A stretch of 64,000 nucleotides of DNA from an uncultured Clostridia bacterium (GTDB taxonomy: Bacteria; Bacillota; Clostridia; Christensenellales; UBA1242). The notes under the pieces are model-generated. The model saw nothing but the letters and a program-made list of their open reading frames with translations, had not been told where the DNA came from and did not search any database. A program made the translations under genes and the position numbers. The DNA lies in contig CALWCW010000066.1 in assembly GCA_944376495.1 (NCBI GenBank), positions 3,299 to 67,298 of the forward strand, read 5' to 3'. Position 1 is the stretch's first letter; each line of letters opens with the position of its first letter. This document shows, in pieces, positions 9,067 to 63,773 of the stretch.

Positions 9067-10341
9067 ATGAATAACATTTTTAGTGATTTAGAAAAATTAA
9101 AAAGAGAAATATGGCACTTGCGGGAGAGTATAAGGGCACTATCTAGTGTAAATTTAACTTCCTTACAGGCAAAAGTCAATGAACATGACAGCCAATTTCA
9201 GCAATTATCAACGGCTTTAGACTCTCAAAATCAACTTTTGCAATCTACGTCTAATTTAGTCAATTCACATGAAACATCAATTGAAAATTTAAATGAAGAT
9301 TATCAAACACTATCAGGGAATTTGACCTCGCTGGACGGAACGGTATCATCACACACGCAGTCAATTTCAAGCATCAACTCAAGTATTACCGAATTGCAAA
9401 ACAAAGATGACGATATAGATGAAGAACTTGCATTGCATTATTCAAGAATAACAAGTAATACAAATTCAATTAATTCAATAGGCGATGATATTGATAGTTT
9501 ATCAAGTAGTTATAGTCAATTGGTTGAAGCATCTAACACGTTATACAACACTTTAGGAGATTTACAAGATGATGTAGAAGAAAACTTTGGTAATATTACG
9601 ACATTGACTGGGAATATAAGCACCATAAATACTAATTTGCAAACATTGTCGGAAGATTTGACTTCGCTGGATGGAACAGTATCATCACACACGCAGTCAA
9701 TTTCAACCATTAACTCAAGTATTACCGATTTGCAAAATAAAGATGATGATATAGACGAAGAACTAGCGTTGCATTATACCAGAATAACAAGCAATACAAA
9801 CTCCTTCAATTCTTTAAATAGCACGGTGGGTTCTTTAACAAGCAGTTATTCAGAATTGGTTACCGCTGTAAACACTTTAGATTTATCATTAAATAGTGTT
9901 GAAAATTCAATTACTGGCATTGAGGAAGATATAGGCGATATACAAGAGGCTCTTCCAGAAACAATTGTTCTTTATGATAAAGACAGCACCGATTCAAATA
10001 TCAATTTGGGTTATACGAATGGTGCATTAGGAAGAACGACTTTAACTATTGATTTGTCGTCATATGAGAAATTAAGTATTTATGCAAGTTTGAATGGGTT
10101 TTCTGCTCAAACAACTATTTATCTTAAGAATAGAACTCTTACTGACCATGTCATTTTTTCTGCCGCTGATAATTTTACATCACTTCATTTTTTGAAAGTA
10201 AATATTCCATCTTCTTTAGATAAAGTAGAAGTTAAAAATATGGGTGTCTATACTTATGATTCCACTACTGGTAATGTAAGTTTTCAATATTCTTCAAGAA
10301 AAGCAGGATATTTTATTTATAGAATTGAAGGAATGAAATAA
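9067..10341 (+). CDS. Coiled-coil repeat protein with a beta-rich C-terminal domain (tail-fibre-like; hypothetical)
   Basis: 424 aa, S/T/N/L-rich with a heptad-like N-terminal 300 aa. Internal 112-aa duplication. C-terminal 130 aa are rich in aromatic and beta-type residues. No signal peptide. Confidence 0.75.
   Translation: MNNIFSDLEKLKREIWHLRESIRALSSVNLTSLQAKVNEHDSQFQQLSTALDSQNQLLQSTSNLVNSHETSIENLNEDYQTLSGNLTSLDGTVSSHTQSISSINSSITELQNKDDDIDEELALHYSRITSNTNSINSIGDDIDSLSSSYSQLVEASNTLYNTLGDLQDDVEENFGNITTLTGNISTINTNLQTLSEDLTSLDGTVSSHTQSISTINSSITDLQNKDDDIDEELALHYTRITSNTNSFNSLNSTVGSLTSSYSELVTAVNTLDLSLNSVENSITGIEEDIGDIQEALPETIVLYDKDSTDSNINLGYTNGALGRTTLTIDLSSYEKLSIYASLNGFSAQTTIYLKNRTLTDHVIFSAADNFTSLHFLKVNIPSSLDKVEVKNMGVYTYDSTTGNVSFQYSSRKAGYFIYRIEGMK
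9321..9464 (+). repeat. Intragenic direct repeat, unit 1
   Basis: About 90% identical (by eye) to 9657-9800, offset exactly 336 nt (112 codons). Encodes LTSLDGTVSSHTQSIS.INSSIT.LQNKDDDIDEELALHY.RITSNTNS. Confidence 0.9.
9657..9800 (+). repeat. Intragenic direct repeat, unit 2
   Basis: Partner of 9321-9464. Substitutions are spread over all four bases. Confidence 0.9.
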
Positions 10342-11484: not shown

Positions 11485-12276
11485 TTATGCCTTCTTTTTT
11501 ATTTTGACAACTTTATCAAGATTTTGAACCGAAGCCTGTAAAGCATCCATAAGGTCAGTGATTTTAATCGTTTTGTCATCATCAACTTGTTTTATTTGTT
11601 TTCCTTTTGCTTTATCTTTAATAGCCTGTTTGACACGAGCGTTATATTCATCTTTGTAATCAGCGGGGTTAAAATTTCCGCTCATACCTTTTATAATCTC
11701 TTTTGCTAAAGTAACCTCTTGCTTTGAAATATCTTGCTTGATTTCACCTGTTGGACTATGTTGAACTTCTTCATCAAAAAATAATTTGCTTAATAAAAGG
11801 TTGTCATCTCGCACCCAAAGAGCAATTACGCATTCGCTAGACCCTAGCATAGTTTTTGCAATTCCAACTTTATTTTCCTTTTTTAAAACTTCCTTTAAAA
11901 GATAGAAGGCTTTTTCAGCACCCTTACTCTCTGGAACAACATAGTAAGTTTTGTCATAATAAATAGGATTGATTTCTTCAAGCGATACAAATTTGTCAAT
12001 AATAATATTTTTATCTTTTTTGCTTTTAAGCCTTTCAAGTTCTTCATCTTCAAATATAACATATTGCCCTTTTTCTATCTCATATGCTTTCACAATATCT
12101 TCATTTTTTAAAACTTTGTCATTACAATCAACGCAAGTTTTCTTGTATTGGACTCTTGATTTTGTTTTTTTATCAAGCATATTAAATCCTATATCATTGT
12201 TCTTAATGGTATTGTGAAGGGTTATAGGAATATAAACAAGCCCAAAGCCTATTGAAGTCTTGTAACTATAAGCCAT
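11485..12276 (-). CDS. ku: Non-homologous end-joining protein Ku
   Basis: N-terminus MAYSYKTSIGFGLVYIPITLH is typical of bacterial Ku. SD AAAGGAG precedes the ATG at 12276, so the track start 12312 is rejected. Confidence 0.85.
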   Translation of the reverse strand: MAYSYKTSIGFGLVYIPITLHNTIKNNDIGFNMLDKKTKSRVQYKKTCVDCNDKVLKNEDIVKAYEIEKGQYVIFEDEELERLKSKKDKNIIIDKFVSLEEINPIYYDKTYYVVPESKGAEKAFYLLKEVLKKENKVGIAKTMLGSSECVIALWVRDDNLLLSKLFFDEEVQHSPTGEIKQDISKQEVTLAKEIIKGMSGNFNPADYKDEYNARVKQAIKDKAKGKQIKQVDDDKTIKITDLMDALQASVQNLDKVVKIKKKA

Positions 12277-25192: not shown

Positions 25193-25398
25193 ATTAAGAC
25201 GTTGAGAAAGTAAGTAGTTTTATTATAAGCTTTCAGAGAGACAGTGGTTGGTGAAAACTGTTAAGTTTTATAAAATGAAAGACAACTTTTGAGTTTTAAA
25301 AATATTTTCTTAATGAGTGGTCATTTTGACAAATTAGGTGGCACCGCGGATAAAAATTATTCGTCCTAATGCAAATATTTTTGCGTTAGGACTTTTTG
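25193..25398 (+). promoter_or_regulatory. T-box leader (tRNA-sensing riboswitch), specifier GAC (Asp)
   Basis: AGAGA box (25235-25240 region). Specifier-loop context GAAAGACAA with GAC at 25281-25283. T-box sequence AAATTAGGTGGCACCGCGG at 25331-25349. Terminator GTCCTAATGCAA/TTGCGTTAGGAC plus TTTTT at 25363-25397. Confidence 0.85.
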
Positions 25399-28831: not shown

Positions 28832-28882
28832 AAAATTTTAATAAATTTGAAATTGAACAAATAAAAATCTTAAAAAAAATAA

Positions 28883-28920
28883 AAAAGATGATAAAATTAT
28901 GAATATCATCTTTTTTATTT
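28883..28920 (+). terminator. Rho-independent terminator (asnS)
   Basis: AAAAGATGAT-12 nt-ATCATCTTTT followed by TTATTT. Confidence 0.65.
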
Positions 28921-29012
28921 ATTTTATTTTTATTAATTTTTGTGTTAAGAATTTATTTTTAATTATTTTTTTATAATTATTTTTTTTATAATTATTTTTT
29001 TATTTAAAATAA

Positions 29013-29435
29013 TTATTTTTCTAAATCGTGAATAATGAAGTCGTTTAAATGGTCAGGGGTTATAATGCTATGTAAATCATGTGAGCGAACTCCAACAAAA
29101 GCACCAAACGAACTTTTTACAAAACCAACATAATTATTTTTTTGAATCGATTTATAATAGTTTGAAAGTTCTCCGTATTTTTGACGTATCTGTTCGGCTG
29201 AAATAAAATTCCCTATTAAATATTTTTTTCTATAGATAGGTTCTGATTGCAAGTTTATTATATTATTGCCTATTTTACTATTTTTCTCTAGTTGGTCAAA
29301 TAAAATAATCTGAAAGGTTGTTTCTGGAATTTGAACCTTTTTATTATTTTTAAACTCTACAACGTTAGTTTGAATAACATCTTGAGATGGCACAAATTGA
29401 TTGTTTTGGTAATAACCTGCGTAAAATAATCTCAT
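29013..29435 (-). CDS. Hypothetical 140-aa protein
   Basis: ORF only. No SD. Lies 30 nt downstream of the 88-aa ORF. Confidence 0.5.
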   Translation of the reverse strand: MRLFYAGYYQNNQFVPSQDVIQTNVVEFKNNKKVQIPETTFQIILFDQLEKNSKIGNNIINLQSEPIYRKKYLIGNFISAEQIRQKYGELSNYYKSIQKNNYVGFVKSSFGAFVGVRSHDLHSIITPDHLNDFIIHDLEK

Positions 29436-29465
29436 ATTATGAGTTATTGAAGTTTTTGTAATAAC

Positions 29466-29732
29466 TTAGCCAAAAGTTAATTCATCCTTTAATTTCATTG
29501 CATTTAATTTTTTTGTTTTAGGGTCTATAGAAAATTTTGTTTGATTGAATTTTTGACTTGAAAGAATGAATTTTTTATTTTTATATATAACTATTTCTTT
29601 AATTTTATCATACAGAAAAAGACCTATTGCATCTTTAGGAATTTTTACACATTTAATATCATTCTTTTTAATTCTTTTTATTATGCTTTTTTGATTTGGA
29701 AATTGAAATAGAACATAATGATATATCTTCAT
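29466..29732 (-). CDS. Hypothetical 88-aa basic protein
   Basis: ORF with a weak SD (AAGGA, 9-nt spacing). Confidence 0.5.
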   Translation of the reverse strand: MKIYHYVLFQFPNQKSIIKRIKKNDIKCVKIPKDAIGLFLYDKIKEIVIYKNKKFILSSQKFNQTKFSIDPKTKKLNAMKLKDELTFG

Positions 29733-29969
29733 AAACTCAATCCTTTTTTATTATTTTACTATGATAAACAACAAAAGTCAATATCTTTTAAAGATTTATG
29801 ATGTGTAAATTATTTTATTATATCTCTAAATAAAAATCAATATTATTTGACATATTTTTTGTCATTATGTCAAATTTCTACATTTTTGTCTTTGCGAGAG
29901 TAATAAGTTTAAGTTTATAATGATTTAGACAACTTATTATTTTTATACAATAATAAAAAGGTGATTATT

Positions 29970-32249
29970 ATGAACATTAAGCTTAAATATGCGTTATTAT
30001 TCTTGGGCTACAGTATTCTATTTTTTGTCTTATCAAGGGCAAGCATTTATAACATTATTTTTCCTTTTGCCTTTTCAATGCTTTTTGCTCTTGCTTGGGC
30101 AGAACAAAAGGTTTGGCTTTTATTACCAGCATACTTAATAGGGACAATAGCAAACAATTATTCTTTTGAGGGGATTATATCTTCGCTCGTTACAATTTTT
30201 GTTTTAGCGTTCCCTTACTATTTACATTTGGTCATTAAAAAACCAATGAAAAAGGTAGAACTTTTTATTTATGCTGGATTTAGTCAAGTTGCATATTTAA
30301 TCTTTAGCATTCTTGCAAATCTAAATCCAATAAGTTATATTGGCACAATCTTGGTAGGACTTATTTTTCTATATTTATCAATCAGCCTTTTTGAATCATT
30401 GCTTTCAAGAGGATTAAGTTATAAACTCACAACCTTTGAAATGGTTTGCGGCTCTATTATTCTAATGGCTTTTAGTTGCGGACTTGCCACTTGTGATATT
30501 TATGGTTTTTCATTTTTAAAACTTATTGTTTCATTTTTAATATTAACAATTTCATATTCTTCAAGTATCAGCAATACTCTTCTTTTTAGTGCTATCACGG
30601 GGCTAGGAACGTTACTAGGAAATAATAATGCTATTTTTGTTGCGCCTTTTATTATATGGACTTTAGCGGTTATAATGTTTAGAACTCGTAACCGAATTTT
30701 TCCAGCACTGGCATTAGTAATAAGTGAGTTAATCATAAATTATTATTTTGATTTGTATTATACGCAGGAATTTTTAAACTTTATACCAATAATTTTAAGC
30801 GGAGTGATATTTGTGATTTTACCAACCCAATTTTATAATGAAATTTCTGTCCTTCTTTCTAGTAATAATGAACGCCTTGCAATGAAAAATGTTGTTAATC
30901 GAAATCGCGAACTTTTATATAGACGTCTCAATAATCTTTCAGAAGTGTTTTTTGAAATGAATCATGTCTTTCGTAAATTAATCAAAACGGGAATGAGTGA
31001 AGAAGAAATTAAAGATATGCTTTATGAAGAATTAAAAAATACTATTTGCAAGGGTTGTAGTGAACAAAAACATTGCCATAGAACCTTTAGTGAAGATACT
31101 AAAAAAATATTTAAAGAATTGATTACTATTGCTTTTGAGCGGGGAAAGATAACATTGCTTGATTTTCCAAGTTATCTTTCCTCAAGATGTGCAAAAACAA
31201 ACTATCTTATCAATGAAATCAACACGCTTACAAAGCAATATAAATCTTATTCACAACTTGTTGGCAATGTAGATACAAGTAAACTTTTAATTTCAGACCA
31301 ACTCGCCGGCATTTCCGGGATTATGAAATCGCTGGCCAGTGAAGTTGAAACTCAAGTTTCATTTGATTCATCACGAGAAAATAAAATTATTGACGAATTA
31401 TCAACAAACAATATCATTTGTTCTGATGTCGTGGTCTATGAACAAGATGCAAAAACTATGATGGCATCAATGGTGGTTCGAGAAGAGGATGTTTCTAAAT
31501 TAAAAATGCAACAAATTGTTTCAAAAATTTGTGGTAATAAAATGACTATTTTTGAAACTTTTCCTTCTACAAAAGCGGGAATGATTAATGTGAGTTTGAA
31601 AACTGCACCAAGATTTGATTGTCTTTTTGGTCTTTCTTCTCATGCAAAAAGTGGAAATACTATTTCTGGCGATTGTCATTGTATCGAAAGGCTTGACGGC
31701 GAAAAATTTATGTTTGCTATATGTGATGGTATGGGAAGTGGCGAACAGGCAGGACAAAAATCTGAAACTGCAATTAGTTTAATTGAAAACTTTTATAAAG
31801 CGGGGTTTGATAATGAAATCATATTGTCATCTGTCAACAAACTTTTAAATCTAGAAAGTGATGACGTCTTTTCAACAATTGACATTTGTATTGTCGATTT
31901 AAAAAACGGTATTGCAGACTTTGTTAAAATGGGGAGTGCATCTTCTTTTATTCGTGGGCAAGAGGGTTGCAAAATTTTAGAGTGTTCAGCACTTCCAATG
32001 GGAATATTACAAGATGTTTCACCGCTTACTAAAAAAGTAGTTTTATGCGAAAAAGATTTTATAATTTTATGTTCTGATGGTATTAATGATACCTTTGGTA
32101 GTGATGGCGAGATGAAAGATTTCTTACTTACAATAAAAACCGCAAATCCTCAAGAATTTGCTGATAAAATACTAGAAAAGGCTCTTGCTAATAATAATGG
32201 TTATGCCGTTGATGATATGACTTGTCTTGTTATTAAGATTTTTAATTAA
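29970..32249 (+). CDS. spoIIE: Stage II sporulation protein E (membrane PP2C phosphatase)
   Basis: About 10 N-terminal TM segments, a central region, and a C-terminal PP2C domain (..FAICDGMGSGEQA.., ..DDMTCLVIKI). ATG at 29970 after AAGGTGA. Confidence 0.88.
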   Translation: MNIKLKYALLFLGYSILFFVLSRASIYNIIFPFAFSMLFALAWAEQKVWLLLPAYLIGTIANNYSFEGIISSLVTIFVLAFPYYLHLVIKKPMKKVELFIYAGFSQVAYLIFSILANLNPISYIGTILVGLIFLYLSISLFESLLSRGLSYKLTTFEMVCGSIILMAFSCGLATCDIYGFSFLKLIVSFLILTISYSSSISNTLLFSAITGLGTLLGNNNAIFVAPFIIWTLAVIMFRTRNRIFPALALVISELIINYYFDLYYTQEFLNFIPIILSGVIFVILPTQFYNEISVLLSSNNERLAMKNVVNRNRELLYRRLNNLSEVFFEMNHVFRKLIKTGMSEEEIKDMLYEELKNTICKGCSEQKHCHRTFSEDTKKIFKELITIAFERGKITLLDFPSYLSSRCAKTNYLINEINTLTKQYKSYSQLVGNVDTSKLLISDQLAGISGIMKSLASEVETQVSFDSSRENKIIDELSTNNIICSDVVVYEQDAKTMMASMVVREEDVSKLKMQQIVSKICGNKMTIFETFPSTKAGMINVSLKTAPRFDCLFGLSSHAKSGNTISGDCHCIERLDGEKFMFAICDGMGSGEQAGQKSETAISLIENFYKAGFDNEIILSSVNKLLNLESDDVFSTIDICIVDLKNGIADFVKMGSASSFIRGQEGCKILECSALPMGILQDVSPLTKKVVLCEKDFIILCSDGINDTFGSDGEMKDFLLTIKTANPQEFADKILEKALANNNGYAVDDMTCLVIKIFN

Positions 32250-32334
32250 TAGATTATATTGATTAAAAATATTGTAAAATAATTTTAAAAAAAATATAAT
32301 TATTTAGATTTTTAATATTTTTAACATTAATTAT

Positions 32335-32363
32335 TTGCAACAAAATATTATATATTGTATAAT
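32335..32363 (+). promoter_or_regulatory. Promoter TTGCAA-17-TATAAT directly abutting element copy 2
   Basis: -35 at 32335-32340 and -10 at 32358-32363. The closing stem of the element starts at 32365. Confidence 0.65.
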
Positions 32364-32364
32364 T

Positions 32365-32454
32365 GGGTGAGAAAATCAAATTTTGAACTTTGTTCAAAAT
32401 TTTAATAATGCTGACGCATTATTGCGTGCGTGGAAGCACGCGATTTTCTCACCC
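32365..32454. repeat. Cloverleaf-like nested-palindrome element, copy 2 (possible 5' leader structure of tilS)
   Basis: Closing stem GGGTGAGAAAATC/GATTTTCTCACCC (13 bp) encloses AAATTTTGAAC-ttt-GTTCAAAATTT, AATAATGC-tgac-GCATTATT and GCGTGC-gtggaa-GCACGC. Confidence 0.7.
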
Positions 32455-32486
32455 TTTCAACGTAAAGAGAAAACAAGGAGAGAGAA

Positions 32487-33821
32487 ATGCTTAACTGTGA
32501 GAAGTTTATAACTGATAATGGTTTATTTAAAAGCGGTGAAATTATAGGAGTTGGATGTAGTGGTGGCAGTGATTCAATGGCACTACTGCATTATTTAAGC
32601 GAAAATCAAGAAAAATTTGACATAGAAGTGGTTGCAATTCATATTGACCATGAAATTCGTGAAAATAGTTATCAAGATGCAGACTTTGTCAAGGAAAAGG
32701 CAAAAGAATTTGGCGTAAGGTTTTATAAGTTTAGAGTAGATGTTCCAAAACTTGCAAAAGAAAAAGGCATTGGGATTGAAATGGCTGCTAGAGAGGCTCG
32801 CTATAATATTTTCAAATCACTTTTAAATAAAGGAATTATTGATAAAATTGCACTGGCTCATCATGTTTCTGACCAAGCAGAAACTGTCCTTATGCACATT
32901 TTTAGAGGCTCGGGTATAGCTGGTGCAAGGGGAATGAGTGCAATTAGCGAAAATATGTATGTTCGTCCATTTTTAAATACCACAAAAGATGAAATTTTGG
33001 ATTATTTAAATGAAAATCATATAGACTATTGCGAGGATGAAACAAACATAGATACAGATTATAATCGAAATTTTGTTAGACATGTGCTTATGAAAGAAAT
33101 AAAAACTCGTTGGCCTAATGCTGAATTAGCAATTGCAAATTTTGCGAAGGCAGTAAAAGATGATGATGACTATATCAATAAACAAATTTACGCAGATGCA
33201 ATTATGAGCGAAGATAAAACTGTAAAAATACCTTTGTCTTATTTCCTATATGATAACGCACTTGTCAGCCGAACTATATTTAAAGCATTAAAATCTATAG
33301 GCATAGAAAAAGATATTGAAAGAAAACATCTTGAGGCTATTAAAGAACTTGCTATAAATGGAGAAAATGGGAAAAGAATATATCTGCCTTTTGAAGCCAT
33401 TGCAATAAAAGAATATGATTATTTAACAATATATAATAGGCATAAAGAAGAAGTTACTTTTAACGAAGAATTTAAAACGGGCGAATTTAATGTTGCTTAT
33501 AAAGGGGTTTTAATTGTAAAACGGGTTAAAGACTTTAATCTTCAAGAAGGGCAACTATTGATAGATTATAGAAAAGTTCCTAAAGATGCAAAATGGCGAT
33601 TTAGACAAGATGGAGATGTGTTTACGAAATTTGGTGGCGGAACTAAAAAATTAAAATCATATATGATTGATAAAAAAATACCTTCTAGAATAAGAGATTT
33701 CATTCCTGTCCTTGCAAGTGGGAACGAAATATTTGCAATTGCAGGAGTAGAAATATCGGATAAAGTTAAAGTTGAAGATGTCCCGACGGCATATCTAGTT
33801 GACTTTAAATTAAATAAATAA
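32487..33821 (+). CDS. tilS: tRNA(Ile)-lysidine synthase
   Basis: PP-loop VGCSGGSDSMAL, a TilS substrate-binding middle and C-terminal domain. SD AAGGAGAG. Sits downstream of spoIIE, as in Bacillus-type synteny. Confidence 0.9.
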   Translation: MLNCEKFITDNGLFKSGEIIGVGCSGGSDSMALLHYLSENQEKFDIEVVAIHIDHEIRENSYQDADFVKEKAKEFGVRFYKFRVDVPKLAKEKGIGIEMAAREARYNIFKSLLNKGIIDKIALAHHVSDQAETVLMHIFRGSGIAGARGMSAISENMYVRPFLNTTKDEILDYLNENHIDYCEDETNIDTDYNRNFVRHVLMKEIKTRWPNAELAIANFAKAVKDDDDYINKQIYADAIMSEDKTVKIPLSYFLYDNALVSRTIFKALKSIGIEKDIERKHLEAIKELAINGENGKRIYLPFEAIAIKEYDYLTIYNRHKEEVTFNEEFKTGEFNVAYKGVLIVKRVKDFNLQEGQLLIDYRKVPKDAKWRFRQDGDVFTKFGGGTKKLKSYMIDKKIPSRIRDFIPVLASGNEIFAIAGVEISDKVKVEDVPTAYLVDFKLNK

Positions 33822-34216: not shown

Positions 34217-34300
34217 GCGGAAGTGGCGAAATGGCAGACGCGCAAGTTTCAGGTGCTTGTGAGTAAAATCATGTGGGTTCGACTCCCATCTTCCGCACCA
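34217..34300 (+). tRNA. tRNA-Leu (anticodon CAG), type II with long variable arm, CCA encoded
   Basis: Acceptor GCGGAAG/CTTCCGC. Anticodon stem CAAGT/GCTTG with loop TTCAGGT. Variable arm TGAGTAAAATCATGT. T-arm GTGGG-TTCGACT-CCCAT. 3' ACCA. Confidence 0.9.
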
Positions 34301-60366: not shown

Positions 60367-60403
60367 GGTGTTTATGTTTGATTTTGTTACTTTTCAATAA
60401 AAA

Positions 60404-60493
60404 GGGCTAGGAAGCATTTTGAACTTCGTTCAAAATAGAAAAGGCTTTGCTTTTTCTGCCTTAAACTTTAAGTTTAAGGCAGCTTCCTAGCCC
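60404..60493. repeat. Cloverleaf-like nested-palindrome element, copy 3
   Basis: Closing stem GGGCTAGGAAGC/GCTTCCTAGCCC (12 bp) encloses ATTTTGAAC-ttc-GTTCAAAAT, AGAAAAGG-ctttg-CTTTTTCT and GCCTTAAAC-tttaa-GTTTAAGGC. Confidence 0.7.
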
Positions 60494-61757: not shown

Positions 61758-63773
61758 ATGAGAAGGTTAAGGTTATCTTTAATATGTATGGTTGCACTTG
61801 GAGTTGTTGGCTATATTTTAGGTGCTGTCATAGCCTACTTAAATACTCAAGACATTGTTGAAGCACTAACAAATAACATTGCCTTTATTGCTCTAGGCAT
61901 AGGTGCTGCGGGCGGATTATGTATCGGACTTGTTACTAAAATTAAAGACAATACGGGAAGAAATCAAGGTGAAGATTCTCAAGGAAATAAAACTGATATT
62001 GCTTATGATTCAAAATTTATTTCACAAGCAAGGTTAAAGTCTGACCCCGAACTTGTTTATACTACTTGGACAAATCTTCCATCTGTCAAAAAAACAGGGT
62101 TCGTTTTTAGAAATAAACAGGTTGGATCACATTTTGAAATTAATATGAAGCCTGAAACTCACGCACTAGTTTTAGGTACTACTGGAACTGGTAAAACTCA
62201 AATTCTTGCTAACCCAACAATAAGAATTTTGGCTCACTCTGGTCAAAAACCAAGTCTTGTCATGACAGACCCTAAAGGCGAACTTTATGCAGATAATGCA
62301 GAGGTTTTAAAAGAGGAAGGGTATAACATTGTCGTTTTAAACTTAAATGACCCCTATGCTTCTTCTATGTGGAACCCAATGGAAATTGCTTATAAGGTTT
62401 ATGAGAGGGCAGGAAATCTTACAAAAGAAGTTAAAAAATTTAGTAATTGCACGCCTGAAGATATGGGTTATAGAAAAATTGACCCAGATAGATTAAATGG
62501 TGCGACTTATGGTGATACGTGGTATGGCTTTGAAGGAAAGGCATTCCCAAATAATGATTTATTAAAATTGGAACTTGAAGCAAGAAAAATTCAACTTGAA
62601 GATGAGGCTCGAAGTGACTTAAGAAATATTGCTTTGTCATTAATCCCTGAAGATCCTAACTGCAAGGATACTACATGGCCTAACGGTTGCCGTGACCTTA
62701 TAACTGGTATTATGTATGCTATGCTTGAGGACTCTAGAGATCCAAGACTTGGCATGACTGTTAATAAATTCAACTTTTTCAATTTATATAAAATTTCAAT
62801 GCTTAAAGACCCAGCAGGTGAGAGAGATAGCGCACTTAAAACTCTTACAAAGTATTCAGAAGGTCGTGACCCTATTCATAGCAATGTCCACAACCTTATG
62901 GCAACAGTATGTCTTGCAAGTCCAGTGACTCAACGTTCTTTCCTTGCAACTCTTGGTTCGTCTGTTGGTAAAACTCTAGGTGATGATGGTATTCTTTATA
63001 TGACCAGCGGAACTGATGTTGACTTTGAACAAATACCAGAAAAACCAACCGCATTTTTCATTAGAATCCCAGACCACAAAACTGAAAGACATCCTCTTGG
63101 TGTGCTTTGTATAAGCCAACTTTACAAGGTTTTGGTTGATGTTGCAAATAAAACTGTTAATCCAAAAACTAAAAAGACAGGACAACTTAAACGACCTGTA
63201 TATTTCATCCTTGATGAGTTTGGTAATATGCCAGCCGTTCCAGGATTTGGAACAATGGTTACAGTTTCTCGTTCAAGAAATATTTTCTTTGAAATTATTT
63301 TGCAATCATATAAACAACTTGATATCAAGTATGGACCTGATGAAGCACAAAATATTCGTGGTAACTTCCAAATGGAAGTATTCCTAGGTTCAGAGGACCC
63401 TTCAACAATTCAAGCATTCTCTGAAGCCTGCGGTGAAACAACTGTATTCCATAAAGAAGAATCTTCTTCAAGAAATACAAGAACTCCAGAGCAGGGTGAA
63501 AATATATCTACCTCAACTCAAAGAACACGCAGACCACTTCTTGATAAACAAGAACTGCGTCAACTTGAACGCTGGACTGTTATTGCAAAGATTTTCAGAA
63601 AAGAAATTATGAAAGATGTTATGACTCCATTCTTCCAAACTAAATGTATGGTGAAAAAATCGGCTCCTGAAATGGCTTCTATTTCTAAAATCTTGAATGT
63701 TGAAGAAATTTATTACGATGTAAATAAACGAAATGCAATCGTTCTTAACCCAAGAAGTCGTTTTGATGAATAA
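61758..63773 (+). CDS. Type IV secretion coupling protein (VirD4/TraG/TraD family ATPase)
   Basis: Two N-terminal TM helices, Walker A GTTGTGKT, Walker B YFILDEFGNMP. 671 aa. Confidence 0.8.
   Translation: MRRLRLSLICMVALGVVGYILGAVIAYLNTQDIVEALTNNIAFIALGIGAAGGLCIGLVTKIKDNTGRNQGEDSQGNKTDIAYDSKFISQARLKSDPELVYTTWTNLPSVKKTGFVFRNKQVGSHFEINMKPETHALVLGTTGTGKTQILANPTIRILAHSGQKPSLVMTDPKGELYADNAEVLKEEGYNIVVLNLNDPYASSMWNPMEIAYKVYERAGNLTKEVKKFSNCTPEDMGYRKIDPDRLNGATYGDTWYGFEGKAFPNNDLLKLELEARKIQLEDEARSDLRNIALSLIPEDPNCKDTTWPNGCRDLITGIMYAMLEDSRDPRLGMTVNKFNFFNLYKISMLKDPAGERDSALKTLTKYSEGRDPIHSNVHNLMATVCLASPVTQRSFLATLGSSVGKTLGDDGILYMTSGTDVDFEQIPEKPTAFFIRIPDHKTERHPLGVLCISQLYKVLVDVANKTVNPKTKKTGQLKRPVYFILDEFGNMPAVPGFGTMVTVSRSRNIFFEIILQSYKQLDIKYGPDEAQNIRGNFQMEVFLGSEDPSTIQAFSEACGETTVFHKEESSSRNTRTPEQGENISTSTQRTRRPLLDKQELRQLERWTVIAKIFRKEIMKDVMTPFFQTKCMVKKSAPEMASISKILNVEEIYYDVNKRNAIVLNPRSRFDE

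Follow-up and report, generated by a model that had tools for sequence, protein, structure and literature searches.

A 90-nt sequence predicted to fold as a four-armed cloverleaf stands between the promoter and the Shine-Dalgarno (SD) sequence of tilS, the gene for tRNA lysidine synthetase, in a 64,000-nt stretch of contig CALWCW010000066.1 (the window), and the question raised by this locus is whether the cloverleaf is there to regulate tilS or came to lie there for other reasons. The window has a GC content of 29% and comes from a species of uncultured gut Clostridia that is known from metagenome contigs alone. The cloverleaf, copy 2 of three in the window, is probably one copy of a new structured repeat similar to REP, MITE and SPRITE elements that landed in the tilS leader and is tolerated there as an insertion, with no dedicated part in the regulation of tilS. 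The features on which this argument draws are, in order:

29961–32249, plus strand: spoIIE (Pfam assignment).
32335–32340, plus strand: −35 hexamer TTGCAA of the tilS promoter; TTGCA stands at the same place in the related lineages L007, L009, L255 and L257.
32358–32363, plus strand: −10 hexamer TATAAT of the tilS promoter; a block of conserved columns in alignment A2 (see below).
32365–32377, plus strand: 5′ arm of the closing stem, GGGTGAGAAAATC, in perfect 13-bp pairing with GATTTTCTCACCC; it includes the predicted transcription start.
32378–32402, plus strand: hairpin 1, 11 bp, stem ATTTTGAAC/GTTCAAAAT, loop TTT; the stem is kept across the family and the loop is variable.
32404–32423, plus strand: hairpin 2, 8 bp, loop TGAC; copy 1, L075 and L067b have the same core, TGC-NNNN-GCA.
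32424–32441, plus strand: hairpin 3, 6 bp, GC-rich; terminator-like together with the ATTTTCTC that follows.
32442–32454, plus strand: 3′ arm of the closing stem, GATTTTCTCACCC, pyrimidine-rich; predicted alternative pairing with the purine tract at 32460–32486.
32474–32481, plus strand: tilS SD, AAGGAGAG, 20 nt 3′ of the element.
32487–33821, plus strand: tilS, 444 aa, ATG at 32487 (Pfam assignment).

Copy 2 (32365–32454) consists of a 13-bp closing stem around three perfect hairpins, and a single base, T32364, separates it from the −10 hexamer. The first-pass annotation had described a promoter ending one nucleotide 5′ of a 13-bp stem with three inner hairpins, and both the coordinates and the pairing agree with that description. 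The fold was extreme, with a minimum free energy of −47.7 kcal/mol for the RNA (z-score −10.7, none of 200 shuffled sequences folding as well) and −34.4 kcal/mol for the DNA (z-score −10.3). A structural scan counted three cloverleaves of this kind in the window, against zero in each of 30 dinucleotide shuffles. The two strands of the copies fold nearly equally well, and their stems are almost all Watson-Crick. Wobble pairs were considered as a sign of the strand that acts as RNA (6 for the strand that presents hairpin 1 first against 1 for the other), and this argument was dropped because an allele of copy 3 has its wobble on the other strand. Coaxial stacking of the closing stem of copy 2 on hairpin 1 would yield a perfect helix of 24 bp, a possible substrate for RNase III. 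The cloverleaf is not a tRNA, since ARAGORN reported only a tRNA-Leu at 34217 in the window and the arms of copy 2, at 13, 11, 8 and 6 bp with variable loops, differ from the 7, 4, 5 and 5 bp of a tRNA with its conserved D and T loops. The tRNA-Leu(CAG) gene itself occupies 34217–34300, just 3′ of tilS.

That the promoter is older than the element was seen by comparing the spacer between spoIIE and tilS with that of six related lineages (L007/8, L009/10, L011/12, L255/6, L257/8 and L259/60), which were found via TilS homologues and whose TilS proteins are 74–80% identical to that of the window. The sequence TTGCAA-N17-TATAAT (32335–32363) matches the consensus at 10 of 12 positions, with a −35 that is not TTGACA and with no TGn extension. 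Taken alone this match is weak because promoter-like hexamer pairs are common in DNA of 29% GC, and the 1.2 kb around the locus held 10 of them where 5.5 were expected. Support comes from its conservation in the relatives: in A2, a gapless 40-nt alignment of the window with five of the lineages, the conserved columns are exactly TTG.A-N17-TA...T and the remainder is free, AT-rich sequence. The annotated consensus promoter of tilS was thus borne out, its hexamers and 17-nt spacing being kept in relatives that have no element, and from the sequence it is very likely the real promoter of tilS. A hexamer scan found no further promoter-like site between the element and tilS, so the tilS mRNA would either start within the element or read through it.

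The cloverleaf is in none of the six related spacers. The −10 and the ATG are 20–42 nt apart in the relatives and 124 nt apart in the window, and subtraction of the 90-nt element from the latter leaves 34 nt. The comparison of this spacer in related genomes had been proposed in the first-pass annotation as a way to recognise an insertion, and an insertion is what it returned. By eye, AACGTAAAGA after the element resembles AACTTATAAGA, which directly follows the −10 in L007, and on that likeness the inserted block may be T + cloverleaf + TTTC. Judged from these alignments, the tilS promoter clearly predates the element, which appears as a lineage-specific insertion just 3′ of the conserved −10. 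Within the species copy 2 is regularly present, being found in all six of the other contigs that cover the site, where hairpin 3 is 4 nt shorter (GCGT slippage) and still paired. The lack of the element from related tilS leaders argues against a regulator specific to tilS.

Given this history, we asked whether the cloverleaf belongs to a family. Besides the three copies in the window, at least seven members were recognised in other uncultured Clostridia:

2601–2676 of the window, plus strand: copy 1, followed by TTGTTTTTTT (2677–2686); identical in eight same-species contigs.
60404–60493 of the window, plus strand: copy 3, antisense to the flanking minus-strand genes; two alleles among strains.
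2382–2455 of L075: one member, in an uncultured Clostridia/Eubacteriales genome.
15–88 and 7908–7992 of L067: two members, in an uncultured Clostridia/Eubacteriales genome.
1806–1897 and 7659–7738 of L052: two members, in an uncultured Clostridia/Eubacteriales genome.
9294–9372 and 12099–12191 of L262: two members, in a species whose ArgRS is 72% identical; the sequences have diverged and the architecture is equal.

All members are 74–97 nt long and have four helices, linkers of 0–2 nt and 0–3 G-U pairs. The arms of the closing stem pair over 7–14 bp across members and make terminal inverted repeats of the kind that MITEs carry. Sequence is shared in part. The hairpin-1 stem ATTTTGAAC/GTTCAAAAT is the same in copies 2 and 3, the closing arm CTAGGAAGC is common to copies 1 and 3, and its GGAAG core also occurs in L075, L067b and L052a. 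In copy 2 the closing stem has diverged from this GGAAG type to GAAAA, giving a U-rich 3′ arm. Hairpins 2 and 3 of the window copies differ in sequence and are perfectly paired. Across members, the hairpin-2 cores appear by eye to be homologous with compensatory changes (AATGC/GCATT in copy 2 and L067b, AGTGC/GCACT in L075), and the stem GTTTGC/GCAAAC is common to copy 1 and L262b (12099–12191). Copy 2 has every mark of the family, namely the closing stem, three hairpins, linkers of 0–2 nt, the hairpin-1 sequence ATTTTG..CAAAAT and covarying stems elsewhere.

Since an alignment of the raw copies with MAFFT broke the structure, idealised and trimmed seeds of copy 1, copy 3 and L075 were used for a covariance model. 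This model (R1), built without copy 2, found that copy from end to end at 30.2 bits (E 2e-5), and it misses the diverged members L052a and L262a/b. In an alignment of nine copies (A9), which was guided by the covariance model and fitted to it, so that covariation counts are to be read with that caveat, 96.8% of the cells were paired as against 77.5% in shuffles and 30–50% with slid partners, and 13 pairs had changed on both sides, a number that none of 500 shuffles reached. With the same caveat, six of nine pairs covary in the closing stem and all five do in hairpin 3. The stem of hairpin 1 is invariant across A9, and its loop varies freely (TTT, TTC, CAA, CTA, GCA, CAAG).

With the hairpin-1 pattern, 102 loci were retrieved from 185,579 species genomes, and among these only L052, L067 and L075, and possibly L023 and L029, hold members of the family. 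The others are mostly chance palindromes, some of them coding (for example for a C-terminal EILNIVQNAK) and others single terminator hairpins. The candidate at L023:7903–7999, in a Parcubacteria metagenome-assembled genome (MAG) and thus in a distant phylum, is cloverleaf-like, shares the hairpin-1 sequence, is closed by a stem of 14 bp and lies directly 3′ of a tRNA gene. In a 1.5-kb Clostridia contig, L029:449–531 and 611–698 are related multi-hairpin elements closed by AAAACCCCCATTTTG/CAAAATGGGGGTTTT, one of which includes the hairpin-1 palindrome. The MAG CALWRJ01 has ATTTTGAAC-N3-GTTCAAAAT right after gene ends (L021:3345, L022:5163, L084:7343 and L103:4639), adjoining tandem arrays of the heptamer GCTAATT with up to 42 copies in 8 kb, and here the palindrome seems to belong to a different repeat.

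The family does not correspond to a known one. Searching the window with Rfam 15 at the gathering threshold returned only a T-box and the tRNA, with no match to the element, and searches of copies 1, 2 and 3 by E-value gave scattered sub-threshold matches with no Rfam family in common. The T-box leader (25193–25371, 102.7 bits) lies upstream of an aspS-like gene. Comparison by blastn with plasmids and phages gave marginal matches, and one that recurred, to a Staphylococcus plasmid (E 0.7), is a low-complexity similarity without the architecture. A scan of viral contigs with hairpin 1 gave four loci, three of them the same protein-coding stretch and one unrelated. In metagenomes, AGGAAGY-N0-3-ATTTTGAAC occurred at no fewer than 120 loci; none of the matches listed had a full hairpin 1, and they are chance matches. 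To our knowledge hairpin 1 fits none of the binding sites of LexA, CodY, Rex, CIRCE and others, and GAAC-N3-GTTC has, as far as we know, the wrong spacing for a Cheo box. The cloverleaf family is undescribed; it is absent from Rfam and has no plasmid or phage match.

The copies are patchily distributed. There are three in about 80 kb of the window species (the window with its flanks) and two in 14.7 kb of L262, while a structural scan of the tilS and argS neighbourhoods in L007/L264, L009, L011, L255, L257, L259 and L265 found no copy, and neither did a covariance-model search of these neighbourhoods with L265 left out. Six of the eight copies checked lie 0–140 nt 3′ of the end of a co-oriented gene, copy 2 itself being 116 nt past the spoIIE stop. 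The L075 copy lies between divergent genes, and copy 3 is inverted relative to its genes, being followed on the minus strand by a T-run and then by the promoter of the next gene. T-runs follow copy 1 and L075, and none is found at copy 2 or L052a. In the plus-strand reading copy 3 is preceded by AATAAAAA (60396–60403), which is a T-run on the minus strand. The claim that copies 1 and 3 are flanked by U-runs is thus accurate with copy 1 served on the plus and copy 3 on the minus strand, and the idea that the element is independent of context was supported by its occurrence after gene ends, in a divergent intergenic region and in a leader, and in either orientation to transcription. Judged by GC skew, all three window copies lie the same way round on the leading strand, also where the genes run opposite to them (n = 3, chance 0.25). 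In L262, one copy sits in the ybaB-recR spacer and represents an insertion relative to the window species, in which this spacer is 47 nt.

What the insertion would do to transcripts depends on where they start. A start about 7 nt after the −10 is predicted to fall at 32369–32372. By partition-function folding, a transcript that starts at or before 32369 has a closing-stem pair probability of ~0.99 with the 3′ arm held there, whereas one that starts at 32370 or later has a closing-stem probability of ≤0.15 and forms about six pairs between the 3′ arm and the purine tract at 32460–32486. The two leader states differ by 0.5–3 kcal/mol, and co-transcriptional folding could favour the closing stem. 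The earlier proposal that the RNA would keep about 8 of its 13 closing pairs therefore describes a state that is possible and also fragile, because the closing-stem probability collapses at 32370 and the freed 3′ arm then pairs near the SD. The SD itself is predicted to be unpaired with a probability of ~0.43–0.49 whatever the start.

A second claim, that the element is not a terminator here, agrees with the cloverleaf as a whole and less well with its parts. Immediately 3′ of the whole element comes TTTCAACG with no T-run, and the SD follows 20 nt on, both as the first-pass annotation had it. Against the claim, hairpin 3 with ATTTTCTC (32427–32442 plus the tract) resembles a terminator and is the only terminator-like match on the plus strand in 31800–33000, by a simple scan that is blind to multi-hairpin closing stems. 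Moreover, no intrinsic terminator was found after the spoIIE stop (32250–32334) in the window lineage, while L007, L009, L255 and L257 have a hairpin and T-run directly after this stop. With the spoIIE terminator lost in the window lineage, the element may define spoIIE 3′ ends or attenuate tilS, as judged from these sequence features.

Taken together, these observations point to the following course of events. Uncultured gut Clostridia of low GC content carry a small family of dispersed, structured palindromic repeats, and one copy of it, the 90-bp cloverleaf, would have inserted directly 3′ of the conserved −10 in the ancestral leader of tilS. The tilS transcript would then begin inside the 5′ arm or run through the element, and the element would form a long, structured leader at the 5′ end, about 20 nt before an SD that is largely unaffected. 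Plausible side effects are a 5′ stem-loop that blocks 5′-end-dependent decay, partial termination at hairpin 3 + UUUUCU, and a 3′ end for transcripts that read through from spoIIE. Elsewhere, where a T-run adjoins it, the element would act as an orientation-independent terminator or 3′ stabiliser. As background, 5′ stem-loops stabilise Bacillus mRNAs, the aprE leader among them, according to references given in PMC3997798, and genes can obtain promoters, terminators and RNase III sites from small repeats, examples being the Correia, BOX and SPRITE elements (PMC2649163, PMC10969869).

The loss of the spoIIE terminator also allows a reading in which the element mainly serves spoIIE, as a 3′-end structure (a weak terminator or a barrier to 3′ exonucleases) that replaced this terminator, its overlap with tilS being incidental. 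The canonical hairpin and T-run in the relatives, the location of the only terminator-like match inside the element and the preference of most members for co-oriented gene ends all agree with this, and in a transcript initiated upstream all 13 bp of the closing stem would pair (P ~1.0). We nevertheless find it somewhat unlikely as the main role, as the U-tract, UUUUCUC, is short and broken, only UUUC comes after the element as a whole, and termination at a site 3′ of the tilS promoter would cut tilS transcripts as well; a 3′ end for spoIIE is in any case compatible with the insertion explanation. The same terminator-like unit would fit an attenuator, and the sharp predicted switch between starts at 32369 and 32370, together with the divergence of the closing stem that made the 3′ arm U-rich, would suit a cis-regulatory leader of tilS in which the start site or a bound factor sets the closing stem against pairing of the 3′ arm near the SD, with attenuation at hairpin 3 + UUUUCU. 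A device of this sort is decidedly unlikely in our judgement: the element is in none of the related tilS leaders examined, the same element occurs at unrelated genes, at 3′ ends and inverted, the predicted accessibility of the SD hardly shifts (0.43 versus 0.45–0.49), the energy differences are small, and the junction, with linkers of 0–2 nt, has no conserved unpaired bases of the kind found in a ligand pocket.

Two further explanations concern the element as such. It might work as DNA, with hairpin 1 as the palindrome of a dimeric protein or with the folded single strand as a substrate of HUH or Xer type, so that at tilS it would be a roadblock or a cruciform. An invariant stem with a free loop of 3–4 nt is as expected of an operator-like 9-N3-9 palindrome, the stems are nearly all Watson-Crick with both strands and the DNA folding well, the window copies are co-oriented on the leading strand, and the same palindrome stands beside the (GCTAATT)n arrays of another MAG. 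We give this reading about as little credence as the tilS regulator, for no candidate protein and no target-site duplication were found, three copies make the orientation result weak, alleles differ in the strand that bears a G-T wobble, and where other genomes have the hairpin-1 palindrome by itself it is mostly coding sequence or a chance match. Highly improbable is an independent small RNA gene in each copy, with its own promoter and terminator, such that the tilS promoter would drive a small RNA. Weak promoter-like hexamers lie 1–25 nt upstream of several copies, but sites of this kind occur at background frequency. The T-runs after copy 1 and L075, the divergent intergenic position of the latter and the strong covariation would suit a small RNA as well; yet at copy 2 the promoter is older than the element, there is no terminator and tilS directly follows, copy 3 has its T-run on the other strand, where an RNA would be the reverse complement, and Rfam has no match.

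Several observations weigh against a tolerated insertion of a mobile repeat, the reading that we prefer. By eye, no consistent direct repeat that could be a target-site duplication was seen in the flanks of eight copies, and neither the window nor 260 loci showed an unpaired CTAGGAAGC or GGGCTAGGAAGC end beside a transposase. All sampled strains carry all three copies, with small changes within stems only, so that there is no presence/absence polymorphism. After a small open reading frame (ORF) 3′ of argS, copy 1 and L262b stand at matching positions and have a hairpin-2 stem in common, in species whose ArgRS proteins are only 72% identical, which suggests a long retention of the fold; combined with the strong covariation, this argues for selection on the fold itself, beyond what an element that is purely selfish or neutral would require. 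Hairpin 1, with its conserved stem and free loop, looks like a specific protein site, which a tolerated insertion leaves unexplained, and every functional step at tilS is one that we infer from sequence. A view that takes up these points is that the cloverleaf is a functional, long-maintained module with a dedicated partner that reads the hairpin-1 stem (a transposase or recombinase of single-stranded DNA, or an RNA-binding factor for an orientation-independent terminator or insulator), co-opted at tilS as a start-site-dependent switch; we consider it quite unlikely.

Among known repeats, the SPRITE, BOX and RUP elements of Streptococcus pneumoniae are like the cloverleaf in being short, non-coding and intergenic, with stable stem-loops, in a low-GC Firmicute. 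SPRITE resembles a Rho-independent terminator, and all three can alter the expression of neighbouring genes (PMC10969869). The likeness is functional and architectural only, by description, and the cloverleaf differs in being a compact four-way junction with three inner hairpins of which only one is conserved in sequence, in a copy number that appears low (3 per ~80 kb) and in its host, an uncultured Clostridia lineage. REP and BIME sequences of Enterobacteria and Pseudomonas are likewise extragenic palindromes, mostly after gene ends, in which structure outlasts sequence, and they can stabilise the upstream mRNA or terminate transcription. A REP, however, is a single imperfect hairpin of 20–40 nt with a conserved GTAG head and is linked to a RAYT transposase gene, whereas the cloverleaf has no GTAG head and is a four-way junction of 74–97 nt, and is thus not a REP in the strict sense. 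With MITEs and the Correia elements (CREE) of Neisseria it shares terminal inverted repeats (here the closing-stem arms), an intergenic location and positions near promoters and leaders. Promoters, terminators and RNase III sites all arise from Correia elements (PMC2649163). Unlike in MITEs and CREE, neither a target-site duplication nor a parent insertion sequence was found here, and the internal sequence differs between copies save for hairpin 1 and short cores, with hairpins that covary where those of a MITE would decay.

Two comparisons bear on copy 2 and on the fold itself. The aprE and ermC stabilisers of Bacillus, like copy 2, have a stable structure at or near the 5′ end and a strong SD downstream; those leaders are short and gene-specific, whereas copy 2 is a repeat insertion whose 5′-end pairing is predicted to depend on the start site. 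The attC sites of integrons and the forked attP hairpin of CTX phage resemble the cloverleaf in combining a conserved fold with variable sequence and a closing stem around a variable centre, and a bias of strand and orientation is possible in both. Compared with attC, the cloverleaf has no R″/R′ core (GTTRRRY) and no extrahelical bases, and no cassette array or integrase lies nearby. GCTTCCTAG may match the dif half-site of Bacillus subtilis.

If the insertion explanation is true, the locus would be a clean natural case in which a small structured repeat has rewired the very start of the transcript of an essential housekeeping gene, for which the ancestral “empty” tilS sites serve as comparison. 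The family is of more interest than the locus, given its cloverleaf architecture, the invariant hairpin-1 stem with a free loop and a degree of compensatory change much stronger than is usual for decaying MITEs, and it could reveal a new terminator or RNA-end device of low-GC gut Clostridia or a new mobilisation system. The case is also a warning for annotation, as strong covariation and a neighbouring promoter do not make a gene-specific riboswitch.

Some further features of the window were recorded. Near copy 1, the small ORF 3′ of argS (2292–2462, 56 aa, no Pfam match) has a conserved promoter-like region upstream and counterparts of 40–60 aa at the same place in L262, L264 and L265. At 2784–2812 there is a perfect 12/12 sigma-70 consensus (TTGACA-17-TATAAT with TG) that ends 8 nt before the ATG at 2821, making the 578-aa protein that begins there (no Pfam match) a candidate for translation from a leaderless mRNA. 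Copy 3 adjoins a gene for a TraG/VirD4-type conjugative coupling protein (61758–63773), beyond which the flanking contigs carry RadC and GmrSD-like genes, and this region is probably a mobile island. Upstream of spoIIE, about 1 kb (28838–29826) separates this gene from an asnS-like gene where the same-species contig L001 has 87 nt instead. The asnS-like gene beside this segment is 95% identical to that of L001, compared with 99.8–99.9% elsewhere, and the segment contains two minus-strand ORFs that have no Pfam match. Finally, a direct repeat of 187 nt with 84% identity occurs at 9290–9476 and 9626–9812, spaced by 336 nt.

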